A stretch of DNA of 64,000 nt, taken from assembly GCA_022750455.1 (NCBI GenBank), contig JAKIVR010000003.1, positions 4,457 through 68,456 on the forward strand, read 5' to 3'. The translations under genes and the position numbers were made by a program. Under the pieces are notes generated by a model. The model had not been told where the DNA came from. It was given only the letters and a program-made list of their open reading frames with translations, and did not search any database. This DNA is from Thermoplasmata archaeon. GTDB taxonomy: Archaea; Thermoplasmatota; Thermoplasmata; Lutacidiplasmatales; UBA184. Position 1 is the first letter of the stretch; the number at the start of each line of letters is the position of its first letter. Below are positions 8,301 to 45,573 of the stretch, in pieces.

Positions 8301-9126
8301 CATCCTGCTCTTCGGACCCCCGGGATGCGGCAAGACGCACATCATGCGCGCGGCGGCGAACGAGCTGAACGTGCCGATGCAGATCGTCAACGGCCCCGAG
8401 CTCGTAAGCGCCCTCGCGGGACAGTCGGAAGCGGCCGTCCGGGACGTGCTGTACCGGGCCCGGGAGAACGCGCCGAGCATCGTCTTCTTCGATGAGATCG
8501 ATGCGTTGGCGTCGAAGGACTCGATGCGCACGCCCGAGGTGTCGCGCGCCGTGAGCCAGTTCCTGACGGAGATGGACGGCCTTCGCCCGAAGGACAAGGT
8601 CATCATCATCGCCACCACGAACCGTCCGCAGACCCTCGATCCGGCGCTGCTCCGTCCGGGCCGGTTCGACAAGATCTTCTACGTGCCGCCGCCCGACCTC
8701 GCGGCCCGCCAGGACATCTTCCGGATCCACCTGAAGGGAGTCCCGGTGGATGGCGCGGTCGATTTCGGCGTGCTCGCGCAGAACTCCGAAGGGTACTCGG
8801 GCGCGGACATCGCAGGTGCCGTCGACGAGGCGAAGCTGATCGCGTTGCGCTCGCAGCTGGTCCTCGAGACCGGCGCGCCGACCCCGGTCGGGGGACCCGC
8901 CGGTGGTCTCTTCGCGGCCGGCACCGCACGCGCCAGCCAACCGCAGCACGTCTTCGGCATGGGAGATCCGACCGGTCTGAACCAGGCCGCGGCCCCCGAG
9001 GCGGACGTCGCGGGGGTGCGCATGCAGGACCTGACCGCCGCGATCGCCAAGCAGAAGCCGAGCATCACGCCCGAAACGCTCGCGTGGGCCCAGGAGTTCA
9101 TCAAGTCGTATGGAACCCGGGGATGA
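5314..9126 (+). CDS. polytopic membrane protein fused to tandem AAA+ ATPase domains (Cdc48/VAT-type D1-D2)
   Basis: SD-like AGAGGAG 7 nt upstream of the ATG. Pro/Ala-rich N-terminal ~125 aa. About 10 hydrophobic helices between aa ~135 and 650. Two Walker A GPPGCGKT (nt ~7465-7488 and ~8314-8337). Walker B ILFMDEID / IVFFDEID. SRH-like GSTNKPDLIDPALMRPGRLDKIIYVPPPD / ATTNRPQTLDPALLRPGRFDKIFYVPPPD. Confidence 0.85.
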   Translation: MSGDPNEPTTPAPRRTITGTAAPAAAVPAGAAAPTPAPVAPATPAPAPAPAKPATPSLPRPPVKAGTPATPGLPAKPRPAAAPAGVKPKGTSAPLATQPRRPTTPARPRGASPPARRPPQGGMSLGGFVPPRGTMGHRTGLVLLVAGIILLGSGVGLYFTFYPVIANTQTAAGFLSTSNAQLFTNDPGVKAVHLTSSSEKVGASVYILDTVSSVQYNASAGVTLLTFQSISNEPTNERATQSSLAQLLFGTFSGSISWLKSGEQILMTFTIVQAQLPGGVYTSQPYLTLDAAADATHASLSPGGPTGLASPAIGQQYIQPGFNVDYQGLFIFLAIVGGLIVLGELFFAGGLERWIRSQTKDPQNLVVGLMGAMTAFAGFFMPFYPWPYVLLFVAGIMAVAWKFPQLSLVMLCLIVVPEVAYQSGALGLIFLVALIPILYAGLVDWRFGFGALLTLFLAPVGLSFAVPIFMALIFSLYLGLAVAVAGGLLITIFVTLGNLPMFGYLVGPGASSNPSLVAGHSAALLPALPWTFFSLGSVGAAYSNLFSPNFTVLAAGWGGLGSIAIPLAEIGSWCFAAWLIATQLHDREKQSQENLLRTSFAGGAVVAAVALVGFASFNYIQWPMLVVLLFLPAMVAVAAGALVVRDTFEAYFTSRMGATSVGTRVAEMKGLQKVTFEMVGGLHDVKADIKESMIIPLMRKDITTRFRLEPPKGLLLFGPPGCGKTMLMKALASELGVEMISIKCSDVMSKWYGESENKIADLLRTARERAPCILFMDEIDSIAKRRDMYTADDVTPRLLSILLSEMDGIEKSAGVIVVGSTNKPDLIDPALMRPGRLDKIIYVPPPDFNERMEVVHVHMQGRPVSGEIDLAEIAKKTERFSGADLANLVREAATIAVRREMMKQDASGSMTMEDFQQVIGRIKPSISLRMLTDYETMKMDYERKMHQVQRMERKVVVHWDDVGGLTDIKSAIREYVELPLTRPELMESYKIKTGRGILLFGPPGCGKTHIMRAAANELNVPMQIVNGPELVSALAGQSEAAVRDVLYRARENAPSIVFFDEIDALASKDSMRTPEVSRAVSQFLTEMDGLRPKDKVIIIATTNRPQTLDPALLRPGRFDKIFYVPPPDLAARQDIFRIHLKGVPVDGAVDFGVLAQNSEGYSGADIAGAVDEAKLIALRSQLVLETGAPTPVGGPAGGLFAAGTARASQPQHVFGMGDPTGLNQAAAPEADVAGVRMQDLTAAIAKQKPSITPETLAWAQEFIKSYGTRG

Positions 9127-9508
9127 GCTCGTCCGACCGACAGAGGGCGGGCGCCCCCGCCCATCGGACCGGCCGTCGCGGGACAAGATCTCCTCCGTCG
9201 GCCTCCCTCCTCGAGTCGACCCGGACGACCTCCCCGTCCCCCGGACGGAAGACCCGGCGTTCTGGCTGGCGGTCCTCATCGGGGCCGCGACGGTGTTCGC
9301 GGTCGGCGTCTACATGCCGTTCCGGTACGGGTACCCGTGGGAGTACCTCGCGTTCCCGTTCACCATCGCGGGCGGCGCGGTCGGCTCGATCGCCATCTCC
9401 CGCTGGCAGCTGCTCCGGCGCAGCCGCGCCCAGGAAGGCCGGGAGGAGCGGCTCGCCCAGCTCCCGAGCTTCGAGGTGTACACCCCCCCGAAGCCTCCCT
9501 CCTCCTGA
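9110..9508 (+). CDS. small membrane protein (2 predicted TM helices)
   Basis: Overlaps the stop of the AAA gene by 17 nt. Helices AFWLAVLIGAATVFAVGV and LAFPFTIAGGAVGSIAI. The N-terminal 50 aa are Pro/Arg-rich, so the true start may lie downstream. Confidence 0.4.
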   Translation: MEPGDELVRPTEGGRPRPSDRPSRDKISSVGLPPRVDPDDLPVPRTEDPAFWLAVLIGAATVFAVGVYMPFRYGYPWEYLAFPFTIAGGAVGSIAISRWQLLRRSRAQEGREERLAQLPSFEVYTPPKPPSS

Positions 9509-9695
9509 CGCCGTACCGGGGTCTCGCGACGAGGTGAGACTTGTGTCAAAAACTAGTGTTAAAGAGGGGTGCGCCTCTCTCCCCCCCCGATATGCGCCGG
9601 ACGGAGAGGGGCTCGTCCGCGCCCTCGGCAGTTTCGAGCGGGAGCTCGGAGCGCGCCGAACGGCCCCGATCCACCGGACGAACGGAACGTAATCG

Positions 9696-12600
9696 ATGAA
9701 AGCCGGAGCGTGGTCCACCCAGGTCGCCTTCAGTGTGAGCATCGTCGCGATCCTTCTCGCGTGGGGGATCGCCAACTCCGGGATCTCCGCGACCCCCTCT
9801 CCGACCTCGGTCAACCCCGGCGAAAAGATCTCCCTGCCGACGACGAGTTCGCCGAGCACCCACCCCGCCTCCTCCCCGAGTGCTGCCCCCGACACGTCCT
9901 CCGCGACTCCGACGTTCAAGGATTCGAGCGGCTCGCGGGCGGGTCCGACCCCTGCGACGCCTGGCCCCGCGGCCTGCCCCAATCCACCCATCTTCCTCCC
10001 GATGGGAGCCAACAATCTCCTGCCCCCGTACCCGGCGGTCGACAACACCACGAACTGGGTCGACGGGAGCCCCGGCTGCTTCGAGTTCTTCGACACGGTG
10101 CACGACTCGTTCTCCTCTGCCGAGGTTGGCTCCGGCGACCACTTCGAGGTACCGGTCGGACTGCCGGAGAATCCGGCCGGGAACGAATCGACCATCCTGG
10201 TCGACATCAACGTCGGCATGGTGGTTCAGGGCGACTCGAAGTCCCTCGGCGGCCAGTCGTGGGCTGAGGTCTACTTCGTCCCCGAAACCGGCTCCAACGC
10301 CTGGGACGGCTTCCTCGCCGTCTGGTCGGCGACGCAGAGTACCCTGTGGTACTCCCCTCCGTCGGGAGGGAACCCGGCCAGCTGCGGCGGGGAGTCCCAG
10401 GGCGCCGTCTGGACCAGCGGCACGTATTGCATCGTCGACGCCCTCAACGGCGGCGATGGCGAGAGCCTCGGCAGCTTCGCCGGCGGAGATTCGATGCTCG
10501 TCGCCATGGCCGGCACTCCCGCCGCCTCGAGTGGTATGATGGTCTGGGTCAACGACACCACGACCTCCACGGACACGTCGAACCAGCTGTCGGGCACGGA
10601 CACCAGCAGCGACTTCACGTTCACCCCCGCGTTCAAGAGCGCGTGCCTGGATGCGTGCGAACTGAACTGGTCGGGCGAGTTCGGCCTCGGGGTCGGGGTC
10701 GATCTCTGCGACAGCACGATCATCGGTGGCGACTGCTTCTCCTACGACGACTCGTACTGGAATGAGAGCTCCCCGATGGAGATCGGCGTCCCGGAGTACA
10801 TGTCGGGGGGCACCTACTCGGGCCAGTACCTGGTGCTCGCGCCGCAGTCGCTCTCGGGACACTGCTCCGGGGTGAGCACGATGCCCCCCACCGTCGTGCA
10901 ATGCTCGACGCCCGCGCAATCGTTCGGCTTCTATCCGGCGTGGAGCTTCAACGGCACGGGTCTCAACTTCGGCTCCACCTGGCCGTGGTCGATCGTCACC
11001 TGGGGCGGAGGGTTCGTCGAGTTCGGGACGTACGGGGGGCTGACGGACGACATCCCGCTCTTCCCCGACAATCCGGTGAACTCGTCCGATGACGGCTTCA
11101 TCCCCTCGGGGAGCGGCCTGACGGTCCACGCCCGCATCGCCGCGTACGGCACCGTGACCCAGGCGTCCCTGAACTACACCATCAACGGCGCCGGAGGGAA
11201 CAACCTCACGATGACGCTCACCTCGGGGAACACCGAGGATGGGAACTACACCGCTACGATCCCTTCGGGCGCCGACGGCACGATCGCGTTCCGGATCTGG
11301 GCGACGGACCTCGCCGGGGCGATCGTCCCCGGACCGTCCCCGCCCGCCCACGCCTCGATCGTCTACCGGGGCGCGCTCCCCAACTTCCAGGTCTCGGTCC
11401 TCACCACGCAGCCCGGGTGCGGCGGGGTGCTGTTCAACGGCACGGAGTACGCCGGCGGCCAGGTCATCACGACGACCCCCGGGTACTTCTCCCTCCAGGC
11501 GATCGCGTGCTATCCGTTCGTCTTCGCCAACTGGTGGACGTCACCCGGCGTGCAACCTCCCCCCTCGGTGAGCGGGACCGTCGGGATCTCGGCCTCCGGG
11601 ACGTTGCAGGAGAACCAGACGTACATCCGTCCGGACGACTCCGTGACCTTGGACTCGAACCCGAGCGGTTGCGCGGCCGTCTACGTCAACAACACGGACT
11701 ACACCACTCCCCTGGTCGTCCAGCTCCCCGGTCCCGCGATCCCCGGGGGCGTGGCGGAGTACACCCTCGGCGTCGCCGCGTGCGGCGGCTACGACTTCAG
11801 CGGATGGACCGTCGTGAACGCGGAGCCGTCCGCGGGCGGCATCTCGATCCTCGGGAACAACTTCAATCTGACCGGGAACGGGACGATCACGGAGAACTTC
11901 GTCAGCCTCTCCTCGAACCCTGTCGCGCTCGACTTCGACACGATCCCGGCGTCATGCCCGGGGGTCCTGTTCCAGGGGGTCGGGTACGTCAACGGGCAGT
12001 CGCTCGACGTCCTCCCGAACACCCCGTACGCGATCCACCAGGACCCGTGCGCGCACTACGGGTTCACGAACTTCTCGCTGACGAACGGGCTGACGATTGG
12101 CGACGGCAGCGTCACGGCGGCCCAAGGCGGGATCGTGACGGAGAACAACTACCACCTGACGCAGGTGACGCTCCTCACCCACCCGGCGGCGTGCGGGACC
12201 GTTGATTGGGACGGGGTCGACTACGCGAGCGGCAGCCCCGACTCCGACCTCAACCTGACCAACCACACCGTGCACACCGCGATCGGGGAGCCGTGCGCCG
12301 GCTACTACTTCATCGGCTTCCTCGCGATGGGCGGCGTCTCGGTGCTCGGCAACACCGTCTACGTCAACGCCTCGGGCTCGCTCCAGGCCGACTTCCTGAG
12401 CGGCAGTCCGAACGTCTTCGTCGGATTCCTCACCTCCCCGCCGTCGTGCGGCTCGATCTACCTCGAGGGCCAACAGTACAACAATAGCCAGTACACCCAC
12501 GTCGGGCCCGGCACCGTGTTCACCATCACCGCCGTCGCCTGCACCGACTATGGGTTCGTGTCGTGGATCACCAACTCCGGGGCGACGAACGGGATCTCCA

Positions 12601-13628
12601 TCGTCGCCGGGACCGCGTACATCAACGCGAGCGGCTCCATCGAGGCGCTGTTCGAGCCGCTGGTCGCGCTCGACCTGTACACCATCCCGACGTCGTGCGG
12701 GAACGTCGCGCGGGGCGGCGGCGTCAACCTGAACGGCGTCGCCTACGGCAACGGGGCGGTCGTGCAGGTCCCCGAAGGGAAGTCGTACCCGCTCAGCGCC
12801 GGCAGCTGCGCCGGCTACGTCTTCAGCGACTGGCAGAACAGCACCGGCAGCGAGCTCTCCCCGGGCCAGGTCACGGTCACCGGCCCCGCGATCCTCACGG
12901 CGGTGTTCATCCCGGCTCACTTTGCCGTCACGGTCCTCTTGGGCGGGGTCAGCTGCGGGAGCGTCGAGCTCGACCATCAGGGGTTCGGCAACAACTCGAC
13001 GGTCCTGCTGCTCAACGGGTCGTACTCGATCTCGGCCGCGCCGTGCGCCGGCGAGCAGTTGCTCGGCTGGAACACGACCGGGGGGCTCAACGTCACCAAC
13101 GGGACGATCCGCGTCCTCGGACCCGGGATCGTCACCGCGGAGTACGGCTACATCCCGCTCGCGATTTCGCTCTCCGGAGCGAACAGCTCGTACACGCAGA
13201 CGCTCATCCTGTTCGAAGTGACGGTCGGCTCGCCGATCCCGCCGTACACCTACAACTACACGTGGAACTTCGGGGACGGGACGACGTATACCACCCCCGC
13301 GAACTTCACGAGCCACGCCTATGCGTCGTCCGGGACGTACACGGTCAAGGTCTCCGTCGAGGACCCGCAACACCGCGTCGCCACCCAGTCGATGACCGTC
13401 ATCGTGACGAGCCCGCCTCCGCTGAGCGGCCTGTCGCTGAGCGACACCGAGATCGCCATCTTGATCGGTGTGATCGCGCTGTTCGTCGTCGCGATCCTGA
13501 TCGTCCAGCGCCGCCAGAACACCGGCGGCTCCCCGGACGGCGAGGACGGTAGTTCTTCGACCGCAAATGCTCAAGAACTAGTGGGGTCATCGCCCCCGCC
13601 TCCCGTCGAAGACGAATCGACTCCCTAA
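9696..13628 (+). CDS. giant surface protein: signal/TM anchor, S/T/P linker, seven tandem ~90-aa Cys-pair repeats (Listeria-Bacteroides/InlB-B-repeat-like G-Y-x-F-x-x-W motif), PKD domain, C-terminal TM
   Basis: N-terminal helix VAFSVSIVAILLAWGIA. Repeats each carry [SG]CG...C[AT]xYxFxxW. PKD signature YNYTWNFGDGTTYT...GTYTVKVSV. C-terminal helix ILIGVIALFVVAILIV plus an acidic tail. Dozens of N-x-S/T sequons. Confidence 0.8.
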   Translation: MKAGAWSTQVAFSVSIVAILLAWGIANSGISATPSPTSVNPGEKISLPTTSSPSTHPASSPSAAPDTSSATPTFKDSSGSRAGPTPATPGPAACPNPPIFLPMGANNLLPPYPAVDNTTNWVDGSPGCFEFFDTVHDSFSSAEVGSGDHFEVPVGLPENPAGNESTILVDINVGMVVQGDSKSLGGQSWAEVYFVPETGSNAWDGFLAVWSATQSTLWYSPPSGGNPASCGGESQGAVWTSGTYCIVDALNGGDGESLGSFAGGDSMLVAMAGTPAASSGMMVWVNDTTTSTDTSNQLSGTDTSSDFTFTPAFKSACLDACELNWSGEFGLGVGVDLCDSTIIGGDCFSYDDSYWNESSPMEIGVPEYMSGGTYSGQYLVLAPQSLSGHCSGVSTMPPTVVQCSTPAQSFGFYPAWSFNGTGLNFGSTWPWSIVTWGGGFVEFGTYGGLTDDIPLFPDNPVNSSDDGFIPSGSGLTVHARIAAYGTVTQASLNYTINGAGGNNLTMTLTSGNTEDGNYTATIPSGADGTIAFRIWATDLAGAIVPGPSPPAHASIVYRGALPNFQVSVLTTQPGCGGVLFNGTEYAGGQVITTTPGYFSLQAIACYPFVFANWWTSPGVQPPPSVSGTVGISASGTLQENQTYIRPDDSVTLDSNPSGCAAVYVNNTDYTTPLVVQLPGPAIPGGVAEYTLGVAACGGYDFSGWTVVNAEPSAGGISILGNNFNLTGNGTITENFVSLSSNPVALDFDTIPASCPGVLFQGVGYVNGQSLDVLPNTPYAIHQDPCAHYGFTNFSLTNGLTIGDGSVTAAQGGIVTENNYHLTQVTLLTHPAACGTVDWDGVDYASGSPDSDLNLTNHTVHTAIGEPCAGYYFIGFLAMGGVSVLGNTVYVNASGSLQADFLSGSPNVFVGFLTSPPSCGSIYLEGQQYNNSQYTHVGPGTVFTITAVACTDYGFVSWITNSGATNGISIVAGTAYINASGSIEALFEPLVALDLYTIPTSCGNVARGGGVNLNGVAYGNGAVVQVPEGKSYPLSAGSCAGYVFSDWQNSTGSELSPGQVTVTGPAILTAVFIPAHFAVTVLLGGVSCGSVELDHQGFGNNSTVLLLNGSYSISAAPCAGEQLLGWNTTGGLNVTNGTIRVLGPGIVTAEYGYIPLAISLSGANSSYTQTLILFEVTVGSPIPPYTYNYTWNFGDGTTYTTPANFTSHAYASSGTYTVKVSVEDPQHRVATQSMTVIVTSPPPLSGLSLSDTEIAILIGVIALFVVAILIVQRRQNTGGSPDGEDGSSSTANAQELVGSSPPPPVEDESTP
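11390..13270 (+). repeat. seven tandem ~270-nt coding repeats (protein-level ~90-aa Cys-pair modules) inside gene 9696-13628
   Basis: Recurring protein blocks [SG]CG.(V/I)...G..Y........P........AC..Y.F..W....G. Nucleotide identity between copies is low, suggesting ancient duplication. Confidence 0.6.
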
Positions 13629-13639
13629 GAGGAACCACA

Positions 13640-16600
13640 ATGATCGAGAATGGCCCGCAAGAGCACCTGTCGACGACGAACGCAACCCCGGCCGCGGCCG
13701 CTGGGAACTCCCGACGCCTCATGGCCGTCGCGTTGGCGGGGATGTTCATCGCCTCCACGGTGTTGATCTTCGCCATCACCGGAGTCCCGTTCGCCTCGAC
13801 GACGCACGCGGCTCCCCAGCCGGGGATGCCGTTCGCCGAGCCGCAGTCGATGGCGCACGCCGTCTCGCGGGGGGCGTCCCCATCGGCCGCCGCCCCAACG
13901 ACCACGACGCCCCTGGCCAGCTCGGCCGGTGCGAGTTTTCCCGTGGGTCCTTCCTTCCTGCACAGCGCCCCCTCCGCGAGCCTCTCTCCCCATAGCCTCC
14001 TCCCGGCCGGCGTGACGTTGCCCTCGACCGACAAGAGCTCGACCTCTTCGAGCCCGACCTCTTCGAGCCCGACCTCTTTCGGCCCCGTATCGGAGGACGC
14101 CTCGACGTCCCAGAACTGGTACGTGAACAACTGGTCGAGCGACTCCCAGGTGATCCAGGTCGGAGCGAGCAACCAATCGCTCGCCCTGACGGGGACGAGC
14201 GTAAACGGCCTCAACGGCTCGTATTTCTTCTACCAGCACGGCTTCACCTACGTCAGCACCACCTCGAACGGCGGTAAGACGTGGAAGACGACCTGGCCCG
14301 GCCAGGCGTCCGCGTGGACCGCGACTCCCTCCGCTCCCGCCTACGGGGACGTGAACGACGGATCCTCGGCGATCGCCTCCGACAGCACGGGGGACCTGTT
14401 CCTCGTCTCCACGTACGCCCAGGTCTGCTACGCGGATTACTACGGCCTGGACGAGTGGGAGAGCAACAACGGCATCGTCCCCTCCACGTATTGCAACTCC
14501 ACCGTCAACATCAGCGCGCCCGAAGGGTACTCGTTCGACGAGATGCCCGCCGGCGGCGGCTGGGCGGCCCCGACGGAGATCGACTCGTTCCAGCCGCTCG
14601 TATACGAGCAGCTCGACTTTGGCGGCTGCCCGAAGACGAATGAGCTCGTGTTCGGGAACTTCACCTACGGCTCGCCCCAGATCTTCTCGAGCGCGAACGG
14701 CCAGGACCTCTCGGTCGTCGTGCAGATCCTCAGTTTCGTGGATTCGGCGTGGACGTGCTCCGACAGCGCCTACAGCTCCGGCGGCACGGTCACCTTGGGC
14801 ACGTATTCGAGCTACTCCACCGACGGGGGCGCCTCTTGGTCGACCGTGACGAGCATCGGCGGGAACTACACGCCGTTCTCGACCGGCGCCTACAACACCC
14901 TCAACGGGGACGAGTACGACGCGTGGTTCGACGGCGACAACTCCACCGCGTGGGTCGATCAACCGCAGACGACCGACCAGACGAGCATCGCCTTCGCTCG
15001 GAGCACCGACAACGGGGCGACGTGGTCGACCCCGGGGGACATCGACGGCACGCTTCTCGTGAACTTCGACAACACCACCGCCTCCCCGTTCGTGGCGATC
15101 GGCAACCTGCCGTGGAGCAACCAGGCGCCGTCGCTCACAGTCGACAACTGGACCTCGTCGCCGTACTCCGGCAACCTCTACGTCGCCTTCGGAGACAACC
15201 GGACGGCGGTCGACCCGACCTCGGGCACCGGCGACCCGAGCGTGCGAATCGTCGTCTCCTCGGACAACGGCGTCTCGTGGGGCACCCCCGTCAATGTGAC
15301 GCCGGACTGCTTGGTGACCCCCGCCGACTGTGGCGGCGCCGCCGTCGTCTTCTATACGCCCCAGGTCGCGGTGACCCCGAACGGCAACGTCTGGGTCACG
15401 GTCATGGGATACGACACCTCCAGCGCCTCGACCCAGGAGTGGGTGCTCGTATCGACCGACGCGGGAGCGACGTGGTCGAGCCCGTTCGCGGTCTCCGACA
15501 CCGCGACCGCGATCGGCACCACGGTCGCGTTCCTGTACGACAACAATCCGCTGATCGCCCCGTACTTCACCGGGCCGGGTCTCGGCTTCCCGTGGGGGAA
15601 CGGGAACATCTTCCTCGGTCCTTCGTGGAACTACATCACAACGGGGACCCCCGGGTTCCAAGAGCCGACCGACGGGGCGGCCCCGGCGATCAACGGGATC
15701 GTGGCGACGACCGAAGGCCTGTTCAGCACCTGGACCGACTGCCGGGACGCGTCGAACTGCCTCACGGGGACCGGCAACTCCTCGATCTTCGCGGCGTACG
15801 TCTTGGGTCTGACCGTGAACGCCTCGGGCGCGAACGGCTTTGGGCCGCTCTCGGCGAGCGTCGCCATCAACTCCCTCGGGTCGGGCGTGACGGTCGACGT
15901 GACGCCCTCCCAGTCCGGACTCGTCGCCTTGGACGAGGGCGCGACGGTCTCGGCGCAGACCGCGTCGTCGATGTCGTACAACGCGACGTTCCTGCTCGGC
16001 TTCCAGGAGTTCAGCGGTGGGACGATCGACACGCTCTCCAATCCCGGTACGGGGACGGTCAGCAGTTCGAGCAGCCAGATCGAAGCGATCTTCACCCCCG
16101 AGCCCGCGGGATGGATCAACGGCACCGTGACGCCGACCTCGGCGAACCCGAAGGTCTACCTCAACGACGTCCAGGTGACCGACCTGCAGGTGCTGGGGCA
16201 CTCGTACTGGTTCAATGAGACCGTGCTCGCCGGCTCCTCCTACACCGTCTCGGCGACCGCGACCGATTACAACTCGACGTCCGCGCAGTGCCTGGTGAAC
16301 GCCTTCACGGTCTGCACGACGAGCCTCGTCCTCGTGCCCGAGGCCGGCTATCTGAACGACACGATCACGGCGGCGACCGGCGGGGTCCCCCAGGGATTGA
16401 CCGTGACGCTCGAGTCGTTGTCGGGCGTGAGCTATCCGTTCTCGGTGTCGCCGACCTCCGGTCTCTTCCATCTCGAAGCGCCGTGGGGGCCGTACTGGCT
16501 GAACGCCACCGCGACCGGGATGACGAGCTACTCGGGGACGATCACCCTACCCCCCGGCACCTCGGGGAGCCTGCACAACCTCGTGCTGTACGGCAGTCAC

Positions 16601-17332
16601 ATCGATGGCACGCTCGCCCCGATCAACTCGATCGTCAAGATCAATGGCATCCTGTTGGGACCGGGCAACGGCAACTACACCGATGACTCGTACAACTGGA
16701 GCGGCCTCGCGGGCACGTACAAGGTGACGGCGTCGGACGCCGGCTACAGTGTCTTCAGCCAGAACGTGACGGTCGCGGCAGGACAGAACCTGAGCGGGCT
16801 CAACATCATCCTCGTCAACCACGGCTGGTTCGTCGGGACGGTCTCCCCGGCGACGGCGACGATCCTGGTCGGCAAGAGCTTCGTGACGGTCGAGAGCGGG
16901 AAGTTCAACCAGTCGTTCCCGACGGGAGTCTACGCGGTGACGGTCGAGGCCGCGGGATACACCGCGAACAACACCAACGCGAACATCACCCCGGGGAACG
17001 CGACGCCGTTCATCTTCATCCTGAAGACGAGTGGCACGAACCCCCAGAACTGCACGAACGATCCGCAATTGGCGAACTGCTCGAAGCAAGGAACGAATAC
17101 CTCGGTCGCCCCCGCTAACAACAACGCCCTCATCGAAGAAGCGGGGATCGGCCTCCTCATCGTGATCGTCGTGATCCTCGCGGCGGTGATGCTCATGCGG
17201 AGCGGTAAGGGCGGCCGCGGCGGCCAGCAACAGTGGGACGACGGGCAGGGCAGCTCCTCGACCGCCGCTGGCAACTCGGGCGACACCATGTCCGTCAACG
17301 ACGGCACGTCGGGCGGACCCGGAACCAACTGA
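13640..17332 (+). CDS. BNR/Asp-box repeat (beta-propeller) surface glycoprotein with C-terminal PEGA-like domains and TM anchor
   Basis: N-terminal helix LMAVALAGMFIASTVLIFAI. Asp-box motifs S-x-D-x-G-x-T-W at least five times (TSNGGKTWKTT, STDGGASWSTV, STDNGATWSTP, SSDNGVSWGTP, STDAGATWSSP). PEGA-like segments GTYKVTASDAGYSVF / GVYAVTVEAAGYTAN. C-terminal helix AGIGLLIVIVVILAAVMLM. Confidence 0.8.
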   Translation: MIENGPQEHLSTTNATPAAAAGNSRRLMAVALAGMFIASTVLIFAITGVPFASTTHAAPQPGMPFAEPQSMAHAVSRGASPSAAAPTTTTPLASSAGASFPVGPSFLHSAPSASLSPHSLLPAGVTLPSTDKSSTSSSPTSSSPTSFGPVSEDASTSQNWYVNNWSSDSQVIQVGASNQSLALTGTSVNGLNGSYFFYQHGFTYVSTTSNGGKTWKTTWPGQASAWTATPSAPAYGDVNDGSSAIASDSTGDLFLVSTYAQVCYADYYGLDEWESNNGIVPSTYCNSTVNISAPEGYSFDEMPAGGGWAAPTEIDSFQPLVYEQLDFGGCPKTNELVFGNFTYGSPQIFSSANGQDLSVVVQILSFVDSAWTCSDSAYSSGGTVTLGTYSSYSTDGGASWSTVTSIGGNYTPFSTGAYNTLNGDEYDAWFDGDNSTAWVDQPQTTDQTSIAFARSTDNGATWSTPGDIDGTLLVNFDNTTASPFVAIGNLPWSNQAPSLTVDNWTSSPYSGNLYVAFGDNRTAVDPTSGTGDPSVRIVVSSDNGVSWGTPVNVTPDCLVTPADCGGAAVVFYTPQVAVTPNGNVWVTVMGYDTSSASTQEWVLVSTDAGATWSSPFAVSDTATAIGTTVAFLYDNNPLIAPYFTGPGLGFPWGNGNIFLGPSWNYITTGTPGFQEPTDGAAPAINGIVATTEGLFSTWTDCRDASNCLTGTGNSSIFAAYVLGLTVNASGANGFGPLSASVAINSLGSGVTVDVTPSQSGLVALDEGATVSAQTASSMSYNATFLLGFQEFSGGTIDTLSNPGTGTVSSSSSQIEAIFTPEPAGWINGTVTPTSANPKVYLNDVQVTDLQVLGHSYWFNETVLAGSSYTVSATATDYNSTSAQCLVNAFTVCTTSLVLVPEAGYLNDTITAATGGVPQGLTVTLESLSGVSYPFSVSPTSGLFHLEAPWGPYWLNATATGMTSYSGTITLPPGTSGSLHNLVLYGSHIDGTLAPINSIVKINGILLGPGNGNYTDDSYNWSGLAGTYKVTASDAGYSVFSQNVTVAAGQNLSGLNIILVNHGWFVGTVSPATATILVGKSFVTVESGKFNQSFPTGVYAVTVEAAGYTANNTNANITPGNATPFIFILKTSGTNPQNCTNDPQLANCSKQGTNTSVAPANNNALIEEAGIGLLIVIVVILAAVMLMRSGKGGRGGQQQWDDGQGSSSTAAGNSGDTMSVNDGTSGGPGTN

Positions 17333-40615: not shown

Positions 40616-42202
40616 CTACCCCACGATCGGTTCGACCGGTGGCGGCGGGGCGACCGCGGCCGGGGCGGCGGCTTTCCGGGGGAGAGTCGGGAGGTGGGCA
40701 AAATCGGCGTGGCGCGAGGGCCCGAGCACCTCACGACCGAACAGGACCGCGATCCCGCCCAGGAGGGTGGCGATCCCCGCGATCCAGAACGCGTACTGGA
40801 ACGCCTCGTGGGCGGGGATCCCGAGTCCGCCGAAGACGCCGGTACTCAGGGTGTAGGTGGCGAGCAGGGATCCGGCGATCGGAGCCCCGACGCTCCCGCC
40901 GATGTTCCGGAAGACGTTGTTCATCGCCGTCGCCTGCCCCATGTCCTTCGGGTCGACGCTGAGGATGAGCAGGTTGATGATCGAGGCGTTGAGGAGCGCG
41001 ATCCCCGCCCCGATCACGAGCTCGCACAGGAGCGCCTGGGTGAGGTCCGTCGCGATGGAGACGAGGAAGAACCCCGCGGCCGTGACCGCACACCCCGCGA
41101 GCGCCAGCGGCTTCACGCCCGTGCGCGAGACGATCAGGCTCGCCACCACCGCGACCCCGGTCATCGCGAGGGCCAACGGGATGATGTCGAGGCCGGCGTT
41201 GAGGATGTTGATGCTCGGGAACGCCGAGTTGTAGCCCCCAGCCGCCGGCGGGTACTCGAACTGGTAGATCAGGGTGAACAGGGCGAGGTACATCCCGAGC
41301 CCTGCCACCGTGAGCACCGTATTGGTCACCGCCACGTTCCGTTGGCCGAGCAGCTTCCGGTCGATGATCGGCTCCCGGTTCTGGCGCTTCCACCACAGCT
41401 CGTAGAGGGCGAACGGCACCAGGAGGGCGACCCCGATCCCGGCGAAGCCGAGGGTGAGGGCCGACGTCCAGCCCCACACCTCGCCTTGGGCGAGCGCGGT
41501 CACGAGACCGGCCAACGCGCCCCCGAGGAGCGCCGCGCCGACGTAATCGACCTTGACGTTCGGACGACGGTAGGCGGATTCCTTCACCAGGAGGATCACT
41601 CCGAGCGTCAGCAGCAGGACGAACGGGATCGACGAGTGGTACGTCGCCCTCCACCCGTAGTTCTGGGAGACGTACGAGCCGAGCGGCAGGCTGATCGCGA
41701 ACCCGATCCCAAACATGGCGCTGAGGAGCCCCTGGGCGCGGGGGACGAGCTCGCGGGGGAACTCCTCCCGCACCAGCGCCATCCCGACGGGCATGATCGT
41801 GAGGCCGATGCCCTGGACGGTCCGGGCGACGACCATGAAGGTGAAGTTCGGGGAGAACCCGGTCACCGAGACCGCGGCGGCGTAGCAGAGCATGACCCCC
41901 ATCAGCACCTTGCGCTTCCCGTAGATGTCCCCGAGCTTCCCGACGACCGGAGAGAGCGCGACCCCCGAGATCGCGTAGGCCGAGATGATCAGGCTGACCT
42001 GCGCGGCGTTCACCGAGAAGTCGCGTTGGATCGTTGGGAGGGAGGGGGTCAGCATCCCCTCGATGTAGAGGACGATCATCACGATCCCCATCAGGAGGAG
42101 CATCACCCGGTTGGCGTACTTCCGGTCGAACGTCTCCATCGTCTTCGGGATGGGGGAGGTGAAAACGGACGCGGGGTTCGTCGCGGCGGTGGGGAGCGCC
42201 AT
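40616..42202 (-). CDS. MFS transporter, DHA2 (14-TM drug:H+ antiporter) family
   Basis: 14 hydrophobic segments. MFS motif GKLGDIYGKRK. TGATG overlap of its start with the marR stop. Confidence 0.85.
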   Translation of the reverse strand: MALPTAATNPASVFTSPIPKTMETFDRKYANRVMLLLMGIVMIVLYIEGMLTPSLPTIQRDFSVNAAQVSLIISAYAISGVALSPVVGKLGDIYGKRKVLMGVMLCYAAAVSVTGFSPNFTFMVVARTVQGIGLTIMPVGMALVREEFPRELVPRAQGLLSAMFGIGFAISLPLGSYVSQNYGWRATYHSSIPFVLLLTLGVILLVKESAYRRPNVKVDYVGAALLGGALAGLVTALAQGEVWGWTSALTLGFAGIGVALLVPFALYELWWKRQNREPIIDRKLLGQRNVAVTNTVLTVAGLGMYLALFTLIYQFEYPPAAGGYNSAFPSINILNAGLDIIPLALAMTGVAVVASLIVSRTGVKPLALAGCAVTAAGFFLVSIATDLTQALLCELVIGAGIALLNASIINLLILSVDPKDMGQATAMNNVFRNIGGSVGAPIAGSLLATYTLSTGVFGGLGIPAHEAFQYAFWIAGIATLLGGIAVLFGREVLGPSRHADFAHLPTLPRKAAAPAAVAPPPPVEPIVG

Positions 42203-42705
42203 CAGGAGCTCCGGGACGCAGGGTCGTCGGCCGGTCGAAGCGCTCGGAGGGAGGTCGCCAGCTCCTGGGTCACCCGGGCGAACCGTTCCCGGTCCCCGGG
42301 GTCGAGCCGCGCCAGCCCCTCTTCGAGGAACTTCTGGCGCTCCGACGCGACCCGCTCCAAGATCTTCCGGGACCGGGGGGTCAGCGACGTCACCAAACTG
42401 CGTCGGTTCCCCTCCGGGTGGGAGCGGACGACCCAGCCGCCCGATTCGAGCGTGTTGATGCTGGAGGTGATCGACGGTCGGCTGATCCCGAACCGGTCGG
42501 CGAGCTGGGATGGGGAGAGGGGCCCCTTGACCTCCAACAGACGGAGGAACATCAACTGGAGAAGGGTGAGCGACTGCCGTCGGGCGGCCCCGTACTGGAA
42601 CATCATCACCTCTCCGATGAGCTCCTGGAGGGCGACGGAGCCCTCGACGGGTGCCTCCTCACGAGGGGCGCCGGCGCGGGCGGTCGCCGAATCGGTCCGG
42701 GTCAT
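42202..42705 (-). CDS. MarR-family transcriptional regulator
   Basis: wHTH region LTLLQLMFLRLLEVKGPLSPSQLADRFGISRPSITSSINTLESGGWV. Upstream of and overlapping the MFS gene. AT-rich promoter region upstream. Confidence 0.85.
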   Translation of the reverse strand: MTRTDSATARAGAPREEAPVEGSVALQELIGEVMMFQYGAARRQSLTLLQLMFLRLLEVKGPLSPSQLADRFGISRPSITSSINTLESGGWVVRSHPEGNRRSLVTSLTPRSRKILERVASERQKFLEEGLARLDPGDRERFARVTQELATSLRALRPADDPASRSS

Positions 42706-42864: not shown

Positions 42865-43608
42865 TTACGACCGATCCGAGTTCGGCCCGAACGGAGAGTC
42901 GGACTGGCCCTTCTCTTGGAACGGCACCCACTCGCCGCTCGTGGTCGAGAAGTCGACACGCTCTAGCTCGACCTCGAACTCCTTCAGCATCCCCGACGAC
43001 GCAGGGCGGACCGAGAACCGGTAGACGTAGATCCCGAATCCCATGAAGTTCGCCACGCGGGTGAGCACCTCTCCGAGGTGTTCCCGCGGCACCCGGACGC
43101 GGATGAGGTTCTCTCCGAGCTGTTGGGCGAACTCGTCGACGTCGAAAGGCCGCTCCAGGCTCAGGAGGCTCGTGGGAGCCGGAGGGGTGGCCGGGTCCGC
43201 TGGCTCCGGGGGGGCCGACGCGATCTCGATCGGGGCGGCCACCGAGGGGGGGTTGGGCGCCAGGTCGAGTGGGGGGCTCTCGGGCGCGGGGGGCGCCGGT
43301 GGGGGAGAGGAGGGAAGTTCGGGCGCGACGGGGGCGTTCATCTCCTTGGGGGGATAGTGATCCCGTACGGGGGACGCGTCCCGACCGACGAACTTCGGGG
43401 TCGCCTTCGCGGGGGGAGCGGGCGATCGGCGCGCGGGGGCGGCCGCGCGGGACGGCGCCTTCCGTGACGACCTCGACTTCGGACGGGGCTTCGGCTTCGG
43501 GGTGGGCTTCGACCGGACCGGGGCCGCGCGCTTCGGTTTCCCGGCGGGCTTACGGGACGTTCGGGGAGGGCGCGAGACCGGCTTTCGCTTCTTCGGACGG
43601 GAAACCAT
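42865..43608 (-). CDS. highly basic K/R/P-rich protein with C-terminal globular domain (candidate nucleic-acid-binding protein)
   Basis: N-terminal MVSRPKKRKPVSRPPRTSRKPAGKPKRAAPVRSKPTPKPKPRPKSRSSRK. Pro-rich linker. C-terminal ~100-aa mixed alpha/beta-looking domain. No homolog recognised. Confidence 0.6.
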   Translation of the reverse strand: MVSRPKKRKPVSRPPRTSRKPAGKPKRAAPVRSKPTPKPKPRPKSRSSRKAPSRAAAPARRSPAPPAKATPKFVGRDASPVRDHYPPKEMNAPVAPELPSSPPPAPPAPESPPLDLAPNPPSVAAPIEIASAPPEPADPATPPAPTSLLSLERPFDVDEFAQQLGENLIRVRVPREHLGEVLTRVANFMGFGIYVYRFSVRPASSGMLKEFEVELERVDFSTTSGEWVPFQEKGQSDSPFGPNSDRS

Positions 43609-43860
43609 GATGGGTCAACCCTGTGAGCAAGTTCCCAAAGCGCACCTCCCCTTAACAAGGCGGTCGAGCGGGAAGGGACGGCGGCCGTCCTGAGGGATTT
43701 TCGGTTTCGATGCGCATTTGTCGCCACGGAAGCCATGCGATTCCTCCTCATGGTAGAGCGTGACTTGTCGCTGCCGTGACGACAGATGGATTATGTAGGG
43801 ACAGGGGGATGATGCGCCCAGCGACCACCCGCCTCGGTGGCCGAAATCGAGAGGAAAAAT

Positions 43861-45573
43861 ATGCCCGCGAGAGTAATGAAGGAATTCCAGGCGCCGCGCG
43901 GACTGCCTCGTAAGACGGCGTCCGTGTGCCCCGAATGCATCAAGGTGATCCCCGCGGTCGTCCGCGAGAAGGACGGGCGCGTCATCATGGAGAAGACGTG
44001 CCGCAACCACGGCTACTTCTGGGACATCATTTCGAACGACGTCGACTTCTACCTCCGGATGGAGGTCTATGCCCACGACGGGGTCGGCTACGAGAACCCG
44101 TACTACGAGAAGTTCCGCGGCTGCCCGACCACCTGCGGGATGTGCAGTCACCACAAGTCGCACACCGGTCTCGCCCTGATGGACCTGACCAACCGCTGCA
44201 ATCTGAAGTGCCCGGTCTGCTTCGCGAACGCCAACGCGGCCGGCTACGTCTACGAGCCGACCCGCGAGCAGATCTACTTCATGCTCAAGACGCTCCGGGA
44301 GCAGAAGCCGGTCGGTGCCGTCGCCGTCCAGTACTCCGGAGGCGAGCCGACGCTCTCCCCGCTGTTCTTGGAGGCGTGCACGATGGCCCGCGATCTCGGC
44401 TTCAAGCAGATCCAGGTCGCCACGAACGGGATCCGGATGGCGAACGAGCCCGGCTTCGCCCAACAGGCCCGCAACGCGGGACTGCACACGCTCTACCTCC
44501 AGTTCGATGGGCTGGACGACGAGATCTACCGGAAGGTCCGGGGGGTCCCGATGCTGAAGGTCAAGCAGAAGGCGATCCAGGCCGCGCGGGAGACTCACTC
44601 CTCGGCCGAGGAGCTCGCCGCCGGGAAGCCGGACAAGCCGCTCAGCGTCGTGCTCGTCCCGACCCTCGTGGGCGGATTCAACGAGAAGGAGATCTGGCCG
44701 ACGGTGAAGTTCGCGATCGACAACCTGGACGTCGTCCGGGGCGTTAACTTCCAGCCGGTCGCCCTCACGGCGCGGATCCCCGACCGCGACAGGTTCCAGA
44801 TGCGGTTCACCCAGTCGGACCTCGTCCGGATCCTCTGCACGGACGGACCGTTCGAGAAGTCGGACTTCTTCCCCGTGCCGTCGGTGGCCCCGATCTCGGA
44901 GCTCGTCTCGATCATCCACGGCGAAGAGAAGATGACCCTGACGACCCACCCGGGCTGCGGATGCGCCACGTTCGCCTTCGTCTCGCAGGACGGCCAGAAG
45001 ATCACGCCCCTGCCCCGGTTCATGGACGTCGACGGGTTCTTCGAGAATGTCGAAGGGCTCATCGAGAAGTACCGGGACGCGCGGTTCGCTCGGGTGCGGA
45101 CGGCCGTCGCAGGAGCTCGACTGCTCCACGACGTGTCGAAGTACTTCGACTTCTCGAAGGCCCCGGAGGGTCTGAGCGAGAAGAACTGCGTCAAGGTGAT
45201 CGCGGGCATCTTCACCGAGGGGAACAAGGAAGCGCTCGCCAAGTTCACCTGGCGCACGCTCTACATCGGGAACATGCACTTCCAGGACGCGTACGACTAC
45301 GATATCCAGCGCCTCATGCGCTGCGATATCCACTACTCCGTCCCGGACGGGCGCATCATCCCGTTCTGCTCGTACAACTCGGGCCCGATCTACCGGACGG
45401 AGGTCGAGAAGAAGTTCTCGATCGCCATCCCGGACTGGCAGAAGGCGAAAGCCTCGAGCGGGATCGCGCTGAAGACCATCGAGACGATGGGCGTCAACGG
45501 CGAGGTCGTCGTGGACCCGGAGTACTACCGGATCAAGGCGCTGAAGGGCGCCCCCGGGATGAGCAGCACGTAA
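43861..45573 (+). CDS. radical SAM enzyme with auxiliary Cys clusters (candidate tetraether lipid synthase Tes/GDGT-MAS-like)
   Basis: CX3CX2C CNLKCPVC followed by the SAM-binding GGEP (QYSGGEPTL). A second CX3CX2C CPTTCGMC. N-terminal CPEC...C. C-terminal CGCATFAF. ATG 43861 preferred over GTG 43837. Confidence 0.8.
   Translation: MPARVMKEFQAPRGLPRKTASVCPECIKVIPAVVREKDGRVIMEKTCRNHGYFWDIISNDVDFYLRMEVYAHDGVGYENPYYEKFRGCPTTCGMCSHHKSHTGLALMDLTNRCNLKCPVCFANANAAGYVYEPTREQIYFMLKTLREQKPVGAVAVQYSGGEPTLSPLFLEACTMARDLGFKQIQVATNGIRMANEPGFAQQARNAGLHTLYLQFDGLDDEIYRKVRGVPMLKVKQKAIQAARETHSSAEELAAGKPDKPLSVVLVPTLVGGFNEKEIWPTVKFAIDNLDVVRGVNFQPVALTARIPDRDRFQMRFTQSDLVRILCTDGPFEKSDFFPVPSVAPISELVSIIHGEEKMTLTTHPGCGCATFAFVSQDGQKITPLPRFMDVDGFFENVEGLIEKYRDARFARVRTAVAGARLLHDVSKYFDFSKAPEGLSEKNCVKVIAGIFTEGNKEALAKFTWRTLYIGNMHFQDAYDYDIQRLMRCDIHYSVPDGRIIPFCSYNSGPIYRTEVEKKFSIAIPDWQKAKASSGIALKTIETMGVNGEVVVDPEYYRIKALKGAPGMSST

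Follow-up and report, generated by a model that had tools for sequence, protein, structure and literature searches.

Gene X, which lies on the reverse strand of a 64,000-nucleotide stretch of DNA from a Thermoplasmata archaeon (contig JAKIVR010000003.1; this whole stretch is referred to as the window), is a genuine, conserved and seemingly single-copy gene whose product belongs to a lineage-specific orphan protein family of the Lutacidiplasmatales-type Thermoplasmata. The 247-residue protein was already deposited at NCBI as MCI4322603.1 ('hypothetical protein L3K03_01025 [Thermoplasmata archaeon]') and is uncharacterised. We tentatively favour the view that protein X is a charge-tethered adaptor, namely a lineage-specific nucleoid- or RNA-associated factor and not a classical architectural chromatin protein, and we give this view somewhat less than an even chance. 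Its main rival is a role linked to the membrane and to Tes, the tetraether lipid synthase that is encoded divergently from gene X.

A conserved gene in a narrow lineage

The reading frame of gene X bears a clear coding signature. When the frame was divided into five segments of 50 codons, the G+C content of third codon positions (GC3) lay at 0.82-0.88 in each of them, similar to the 0.88-0.95 of neighbouring genes, and the signature was absent from the alternative frames that overlap X. The window has an overall G+C content of ~67%, in agreement with the ~69% reported for the Lutacidiplasmatales (PMC9287336).

The 100 C-terminal residues of protein X matched 140 proteins with identities of 59-98%. 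All of these are annotated as 'hypothetical', and their named sources are without exception Thermoplasmata or Candidatus Lutacidiplasmatales metagenome-assembled genomes (MAGs). When one genome per GTDB species was scanned, relatives were encountered in at least 136 stretches, and the 80 loci listed among these all belong to Thermoplasmata-type MAGs, including that of Ca. Lutacidiplasma silvani. When 1.84 billion cluster representatives were searched exhaustively with an HMMER profile, only 20 proteins matched. The family is therefore narrow, and no distant relatives of it could be detected except P0124, P0127 and P0138. The first two are divergent members that lack the internal FVGRD motif described below, P0127 being 47% identical. 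P0138 is the most distant homologue, a single protein of a low-GC Thermoplasmata genome for which a search returned no relatives of its own. Its gene is not beside tes, and the genes around it, which encode a sedolisin-like protease and a beta-propeller protein, are uninformative. The host organisms of the family are uncultured and form one order-level clade. The first-pass annotation, which was made from the sequence alone, had proposed that X is a novel protein, and this part of the proposal is correct.

Many homologues in the database are annotated with lengths of 97-163 residues and internal start codons, and genomes of high G+C content yield long chance open reading frames (ORFs). These observations would fit a mis-started or spurious ORF, of which only the ~100-160 C-terminal residues are translated, the Lys/Arg/Pro-rich N-terminus being an untranslated leader in a G+C-rich genome. 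We regard this as very improbable. The motif FVGRDxSPVLDxYPPKDP, which is conserved at the protein level, lies 5' of the internal starts in question, and in 77 loci the frame is open back to an M-x-x-K/R-K/R start, the encoded stretch being always basic and never acidic. In addition, the GC3 of the tail codons in gene X is 0.82-0.84, and the length of the tail changes in-frame. The short lengths of the public entries (97-175 residues) are largely a gene-calling artefact, as in-frame upstream extension of the short calls always exposes the FVGRD motif and a basic stretch with the M-x-x-K/R-K/R start. Full-length members of the family have 172-274 residues, with a median of 189.

It should be noted that many of the deposited gene models of the family (within P0003-P0120; for example L001, L003 and L005 at 8001) start 30-110 codons late, so that the basic tail, and often also the FVGRD motif, is missing from them. 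A different anomaly was seen in L066, a contig of 2.3 Mb, where the X gene (about 5837-6300) seems frameshifted, with the FVGRDASPVLDKYPP motif and the domain in different frames; a sequencing error may account for this, or else the copy is a pseudogene.

A basic tail, a Pro-rich linker and an acidic domain

The first-pass annotation had divided protein X into a basic N-terminus, a Pro-rich acidic linker and an ordered C-terminal domain. Both the amino acid composition and the AlphaFold2 (AF2) models agree with this anatomy, to which our analysis adds two conserved linear motifs, one of 18 residues between tail and linker (FVGRDASPVRDHYPPKEM) and one at the C-terminus (EKGQSDSPFGP).

Residues 1-72 comprise 26 Lys and Arg residues and 18 Pro residues but no Asp or Glu (net charge +26), and Lys, Arg, Pro, Ser and Ala together make up 89% of this tail, which includes the previously noted stretches KKRKP, KPKRAAP and KPTPKPKPRPK. 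A basic tail of about 70 residues, as described earlier, is thus indeed present in X, but it is among the longest of the family and not typical of it. In 77 related loci, the median length was 28 residues (range 20-98), the median Lys plus Arg content 36% (28-46%), the median Asp plus Glu content 0%, the hydrophobic content 6%, and the median net charge +11 (+6 to +31). The tail sequences cannot be aligned between species. In X, the KPTPKPKPRPK stretch is encoded by an 18-nucleotide tandem repeat that is likely to be a trace of tail lengthening, and the tail of another family member (L067) contains three PKAGPVR repeats. Since these repeats occur in tails that are unalignable and yet always basic, the tails appear to grow by short in-frame tandem duplications under selection that keeps their charge and not their sequence or length. 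Motifs of the S/T-P-K-K type were not enriched in the tails (19 observed versus 17.5 +/- 3.9 in shuffled sequences), and AF2 predicted no amphipathic helix in the tail. Protein X lacks a signal peptide and transmembrane segments, and it contains no conserved Cys or His. The high isoelectric point (pI) of the entire protein (10.4; family median 10.1) reflects a charge that is confined to the tail.

The linker (residues 91-147) contains 22 Pro and 12 Ala residues and has a net charge of -6; the linkers of relatives span 30-66 residues, 54-86% of which are Pro, Ala, Ser or Thr. The adjoining domain of ~85 residues is of ordinary composition, with a net charge of -5 and a pI of 4.84, and the pI of this domain was between 4.53 and 5.71 in all 82 related loci measured. 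In the AF2 model of full-length X, based on an alignment of 67 sequences, the predicted local distance difference test (pLDDT) score was 88-94 for the domain and about 50-69 elsewhere. A separate run on the domain gave values of 90-97 and the predicted order helix, strand, helix, strand, strand, strand. Across 67 aligned sequences there are 29 invariant columns, which include the FMGFGIYVY block of the domain and SPFGP in the C-terminal motif.

Both linear motifs are closely tied to the family. In 0.95 Mb of related DNA, the FVGRD motif occurred 75 times within ORFs of the family and once elsewhere, namely in a frameshifted copy of an X gene, and SPFGP was almost exclusive to the family. Within the C-terminal motif, G234, P239, F240, G241 and P242 are invariant. 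No copies of the motifs were found in other proteins of the same genomes when this 0.95 Mb was searched for hints of a shared partner. Tentatively, the two motifs may share the pattern G-R-x-x-S-P-hydrophobic. The full-length AF2 model has neither structure nor confidence outside the domain, so it gives no sign that the motifs dock onto the domain.

No known family or fold

Searches for known families were consistently negative. Protein X matched no family in Pfam (E≤0.1) or NCBIfam, there were no matches in PHROGs or PADLOC at E≤0.1, and a sequence-profile search of the PDB yielded only chance-level matches (E≥0.33), such as one to the C-terminal subdomain of adenylation enzymes (E 0.33), which was rejected. 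For 50 relatives searched at E≤10, no match to Alba (PF01918) or to another nucleoid-protein model was listed, and the histone fold, HU, MC1, Sul7, Cren7 and linker histone H1 were absent from the weak matches. The family DUF7433 appeared weakly in 6 of these 50 members, with a best E-value of 0.0025, and was rejected as a chance match since it covered 23 residues and scored 13.5 bits against a cutoff of 24.2. In line with these results, the first-pass annotation had been unable to place X in the Alba, Sul7, histone, HU or MC1 families.

A Foldseek search of the PDB with the domain produced no match at E≤0.001. The best match was Trypanosoma brucei ALBA1 (E 0.12, template modelling (TM) score 0.41, 63 columns, probability 0.95), and other Alba proteins, from Arabidopsis and rice as well as Sso10b2, were also among the weak matches, with E-values of 0.12-0.5, TM scores of about 0.4 and coverage of ~64 of 104 residues. 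Further weak neighbours were KH, Trm5 D1, the N-terminal domain of RlmM, IF3-C, ACT, PilM/PilO and H-NOX. These neighbours are generic small alpha/beta sandwiches. Likewise, nothing significant was found in the BFVD set of viral structures, where the best E-value (0.015) concerned uncharacterised proteins. Protein X is therefore not assignable to any known family, and membership of the Alba family in particular fails on profile, element order and charge. A match to a characterised family that does not bind nucleic acids had been named as a refutation of the earlier proposal of nucleic-acid binding; no clear match of this kind, or of any other, was found.

These findings bear directly on the possibility that X is an architectural chromatin or RNA-binding protein like H1 or Alba, in which a new kind of fold in the C-terminal domain of ~100 residues would bind nucleic acid with help from the tail. 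The high pI of the whole protein and the Alba proteins at the top of the Foldseek matches are in line with this idea, as is the likelihood that the lineage needs replacement chromatin proteins (PMC7613761). However, every relative carries an acidic form of the domain (pI 4.5-5.7), whereas Alba and other characterised nucleoid proteins have a pI of about 10 (PMC7613761). Moreover, the structural matches to Alba are weak and partial, no second helix is predicted where the Alba fold has one, between strands 2 and 3, and a profile match to Alba is missing among the relatives. We therefore consider this possibility unlikely, and the folded domain is probably not the part of X that would bind nucleic acids. 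The label 'Histone-H1-like' that had been given to X is apt only for the amino acid composition of its tail, and X has no winged-helix or other known DNA-binding domain.

A charge-tethered adaptor as a working model

In the adaptor model that we tentatively favour, the polybasic tail of X would attach non-specifically to a polyanion, most probably DNA or RNA. The nucleic acid would thus be bound by the tail and not by the folded domain, the Pro-rich linker would act as a spacer, and the acidic domain together with the two linear motifs would offer candidate protein-protein interaction surfaces by which a partner is recruited. The first candidate for such a partner is the co-encoded coiled-coil protein cc72. 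Lys/Arg/Pro-rich tails serve as electrostatic nucleic-acid tethers in histone H1, mycobacterial HupB and many ribosomal proteins. Because of this precedent, and because the tail has few hydrophobic residues and no amphipathic helix predicted by AF2, a nucleic acid seems a likelier ligand for the tail than a membrane. By analogy, nucleic-acid binding by X is plausible.

Further observations fit the adaptor model. The best structural neighbours of the domain, none of them significant, are mostly small RNA- or DNA-binding alpha/beta domains. A coiled-coil gene with the taxonomic range of X is located directly 3' of it in 63 of 76 loci. Lastly, histones and Alba were lost at the root of the Diaforarchaea, which are described as a hotbed of lineage-specific gain of nucleoid proteins, so that a lineage-specific nucleoid factor would be plausible in this setting (PMC7613761).

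Several points weigh against this model. Pfam, NCBIfam and Foldseek detected no nucleic-acid-binding domain in X, and the one folded domain that it has is acidic. None of the Foldseek matches is significant (best E 0.12, TM 0.41-0.46), and PilM/PilO, ACT and H-NOX, which are not nucleic-acid folds, are also among them. The usual tail of the family has only ~28 residues. Characterised archaeal nucleoid proteins have 56-97 residues, are basic throughout with a pI of about 10, and are encoded in single-gene operons (PMC7613761). Protein X appears to depart from these criteria in its size, its acidic domain and its operon structure, as a second gene usually lies close behind X in the family. Finally, the invariant pairing with tes points to another functional context.

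Table 1. Positions of gene X, of its parts and of neighbouring features in the window. Motifs with a consensus are given as they read in the window, followed by the consensus of relatives.
Feature	Position	Strand	Evidence
Gene X, complete coding sequence including stop codon; ATG start; 247 residues	42865..43608	-	ORF list, GC3 periodicity, exact database match, 140 homologues
Residues 1-72, polybasic Pro-rich disordered N-terminal tail	43393..43608	-	Composition; AF2 pLDDT 51-66 without secondary structure
18-nucleotide (6-codon) imperfect tandem repeat, 2.3 copies, encoding RSKPTPKPKPRPKSR (residues 32-46)	43473..43513	-	Tandem Repeats Finder, translation
Residues 73-90, conserved linear motif FVGRDASPVRDHYPPKEM; FVGRDxSPVLDxYPPKDP	43339..43392	-	Homologues and upstream extensions of short gene calls
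Residues 91-147, Pro/Ala/Ser-rich acidic linker	43168..43338	-	Composition, low pLDDT
Residues 148-232, conserved acidic alpha/beta domain with invariant FMGFGIYVY block	42913..43167	-	AF2, alignment
Residues 233-247, C-terminal motif KGQSDSPFGPNSDRS; EKGxSDSPFGPxGxR	42868..42912	-	Alignment; predicted unstructured
Putative X promoter, A/T-rich TATA-like box TTGTTAAGG, 42-50 nucleotides 5' of the ATG	43650..43658	-	Inferred from sequence
G+C-rich hairpin followed by CCATTTCATT, ~95 nucleotides past the X stop codon	42749..42770	-	Pattern scan
Conserved ~107-bp module between tes and X	43713..43819	.	Alignment
TATA-like box TACATAAT in module	43790-43797		
TGTCG-N9-CGACA in module; TGTCG-N9-CKACA	43766-43784		
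Inverted repeat CCATGAG-N7-GCATGG in module; CCRTGAC-N7-GCAYGG	43733-43753		
Second GCGACAA in module; GCKACAA	43716-43725		
tes, tetraether lipid synthase Tes, radical S-adenosylmethionine (SAM) protein with N-terminal zinc ribbon	43837..45573	+	NF045702, Pfam
cc72, 72-residue coiled-coil protein with invariant C-terminal GF(A/G), MCI4322600.1	40318..40536	-	ORF, relatives
MarR regulator (42202-42705) and major facilitator superfamily (MFS) transporter (40616-42202), between X and cc72	40616..42705	-	Pfam

Gene neighbourhood and a possible link to Tes

The divergent radical-SAM neighbour, the orientation of which had been recognised correctly and which had been treated as incidental, is the gene for Tes. 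Its product matches NF045702 with 573 bits (cutoff 450) and also carries the HMPTM zinc ribbon of Pfam. As the sequence MPARVMKEF is conserved in the alignment of relatives, the real start of tes is probably the ATG at 43861 and not the GTG at 43837 of the mechanically called ORF. The head-to-head pairing turned out to be constant: tes was the immediate divergent neighbour of X in all 56 loci with enough upstream sequence (within 1.5 kb), and likewise in L087.

On the other side of X, a gene for cc72 lies directly 3' on the same strand in the 63 loci mentioned above (distance below 600 bp; about 55-230 bp). Counterparts include those at 8532-8750 of L001, 8397-8615 of L005 and 3723-3947 of L087, and the divergent member P0127 retains the order tes, X, coiled-coil gene. 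The cc72 family, with 436 matches, has the same taxonomic range as X, and no known domain was found in it. In relatives, a gene for an M61 peptidase with a PDZ domain is often located directly 3' of cc72. PDZ domains bind C-terminal peptides and, speculatively, the GF(A/G) terminus of cc72 and this PDZ domain could form a ligand-receptor pair. In the window, X and cc72 are separated by a ~2.1-kb pair of MarR and MFS genes, the coding sequences of which abut. About ten related loci show a gap of ~2.1 kb at the same position, which suggests a clade-specific insertion. The wider conserved block comprises genes for a flavoprotein, a thiolase, a protein with a zf-ChsH2 domain, the M61 peptidase, a Na+/H+ exchanger, an ABC transporter and DUF6015.

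In about 75 species-level genomes Tes was 84-98% identical, while the X domain was 58-73% identical in the same loci; the corresponding values were 37-57% for the M61 peptidase, 46-58% for the Na+/H+ exchanger and 36-53% for the coiled-coil protein. The constraint on Tes within this order is thus unusually strong. Elsewhere in the window, three consecutive and very large ORFs (1270, 1310 and 1230 residues; 5314-17332, forward strand) show the GC3 signature of coding sequence.

The constant proximity to tes raises the possibility that X is a membrane factor linked to Tes. Its tail would then bind the anionic head groups of archaeal lipids at the cytoplasmic face of the membrane, and the remainder would position, scaffold or regulate Tes or lipid remodelling, possibly together with cc72. 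Tes modifies membrane lipids, as the name of its NCBIfam model implies. The adjacency to tes is retained beside P0127, which lacks the FVGRD motif, and it is never broken, whereas insertions of ~2 kb part X from cc72 in the window and in about ten other loci. The compact and conserved intergenic module that is common to both genes suggests co-regulation, and the block also holds the thiolase, zf-ChsH2 and flavoprotein genes, which, in view of the archaeal mevalonate pathway, are plausible genes for isoprenoid precursors. However, all loci with this linkage come from one order-level clade, and the gene order may simply be inherited. Since the wider block, including the M61 peptidase and the Na+/H+ exchanger, is conserved too, such inheritance is a serious alternative to a functional linkage between X and tes. 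Furthermore, the most distant homologue is not beside tes, and the tail is almost devoid of hydrophobic and aromatic residues and has no predicted amphipathic helix. Tes enzymes of other archaea have been reported to work alone in a heterologous host, and most archaea with Tes are not known to have X. A literature search for partners in the gene neighbourhood of Tes yielded nothing relevant. In our judgement a link of X to Tes and the membrane is somewhat less probable than the adaptor model, of which it is the main rival. Rather improbable is a more specific form, in which X and cc72 would be a dedicated partner or regulator of Tes, tethered to the membrane or to nucleic acid, that controls where or when archaeol is converted to membrane-spanning glycerol dialkyl glycerol tetraether (GDGT) and for which X would contribute a previously undescribed small fold. 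In that case it would be the first accessory factor known for Tes.

The intergenic module

The spacer between tes and X was aligned for about 64-70 loci, and invariant columns were counted in 29 species. The ~107-bp module defined in this way is ungapped, has 26 invariant columns and is more conserved than the flanking proteins. It was not matched by Rfam, and RNAalifold assigned it a folding energy of only -0.24 kcal/mol with no covarying or compensatory pairs. The window seemed to show a compensatory change (CCATG...CATGG), but all four arm combinations occur (23, 21, 12 and 2 times) and vary near-independently, so that no true compensation is involved. Together, these three results exclude a structured RNA, be it a leader or a small RNA. 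Because there is no RNA structure, the module is probably a protein-binding promoter or operator region, belonging to the tes promoter.

Divergently encoded regulators commonly control a shared promoter. Protein X could accordingly be thought of as a sequence-specific transcription regulator that binds the repeats or the palindrome of the module and controls tes, its own promoter or both. This would suit the strictly conserved head-to-head arrangement, the strongly basic segment of X and the make-up of the module, in which two TATA-like boxes flank an inverted repeat and a pair of GCKACAA direct repeats and which is most simply read as protein-binding DNA. Nevertheless, X contains no helix-turn-helix, ribbon-helix-helix, zinc-ribbon or other DNA-recognition fold, its folded domain is acidic, the sequence of its tail is not conserved and so cannot read a specific sequence, and nothing ties X, over any other regulator, to the module. 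We consequently see little likelihood in this alternative. The probability not assigned to the readings set out here belongs to explanations beyond those considered.

With respect to the transcription of X itself, TTAAG or TTATCC boxes that resemble TTGTTAAGG occur at the equivalent site in several related loci. The hairpin downstream of the stop codon, with its CCATTTCATT sequence, is weak evidence of a transcript end that would make X monocistronic in the window; the pattern scan found this one site where 0.7 were expected by chance. Between the module and the tes start (~43820-43860 and equivalent positions), a G+C-rich inverted repeat of variable sequence, often with a TTCG-type centre, is followed by a GGAGG-like ribosome-binding site. 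This repeat may form a hairpin in the leader of the tes mRNA.

Significance

If the tail is indeed a nucleic-acid tether, X would be a lineage-specific nucleic-acid-associated factor in the Diaforarchaea, a clade that lost histones and Alba and in which the biology of chromatin and RNA is poorly known (PMC7613761). If X is instead linked to Tes, it would be the first candidate for an accessory or regulatory factor in the synthesis of GDGTs, the tetraether lipids on which palaeotemperature proxies are based. On either reading, many public gene calls of the family are cut short at their N-terminal end, so that the basic tail and a conserved motif go unseen, and the tes promoter region of this order bears a very highly conserved DNA module. 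The reach of these findings is bounded by the confinement of the family to one uncultured order.

Comparison with known systems

The systems that X resembles each account for a part of it. The fold shared by Alba (Sso10b, PF01918) and IF3-C has the order strand-helix-strand-helix-strand-strand, in which the helix that joins strands 2 and 3 is a defining element. The X domain is likewise an archaeal, small two-layer alpha/beta domain of about 90 residues with Alba proteins as top Foldseek matches, but it lacks that helix. Basic disordered tails are also found on eukaryotic Albas; the tail of X is N-terminal and set off from the domain by a Pro-rich linker. The pI of Alba is 10.4 (PMC7613761), as opposed to 4.84 for the X domain.

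With H1, bacterial Hc1 and the C-terminal tail of mycobacterial HupB, X shares a long, positively charged low-complexity segment of Lys, Arg, Pro, Ala and Ser, which in X is free of acidic residues. The Lys/Pro/Ala-rich tails of these proteins bind DNA electrostatically. X differs from H1 and HU in that it has no winged-helix or HU fold, its tail is not conserved in sequence and its folded domain is acidic.

The nucleoid candidates of the Diaforarchaea, such as WP_019177984.1 of M. luminyensis (PMC7613761), are like X in being confined to one Thermoplasmatota lineage, basic, Lys-rich and without a known domain. The HMMER profile search revealed no sequence relationship between them and X. Candidates of this type are uniformly basic (74 residues), highly abundant by proteomics and encoded in single-gene operons (PMC7613761), whereas X is modular and larger, as are its relatives, contains an acidic domain and usually has a second gene behind it.

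Protein-protein contacts are mediated by SHS2 modules, which have the order strand-helix-strand-strand and occur as domain 1C of FtsA/PilM and at the N-terminus of Rpb7. The predicted X domain contains this order, which would suit the adaptor model, but has one more helix at its N-terminus and one more strand, the fourth. The Foldseek matches to PilM had E-values of 0.3-0.6 and probabilities of 0.2-0.5, so that the likeness is one of predicted secondary-structure order and not of a significant structural match.

Lastly, proteins such as TonB and SepF combine an anchor, a rigid or extended Pro-rich spacer (with KP repeats in TonB) and a conserved alpha/beta interaction domain of ~90 residues. 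Neither TonB_C nor SepF was matched by X in Pfam or appeared in the Foldseek top 50, and X has no predicted transmembrane helix as in TonB or amphipathic membrane-targeting helix as in SepF. What X has in common with these proteins is the layout itself, in which an N-terminal attachment segment is joined through a Pro-rich spacer to a C-terminal alpha/beta domain.

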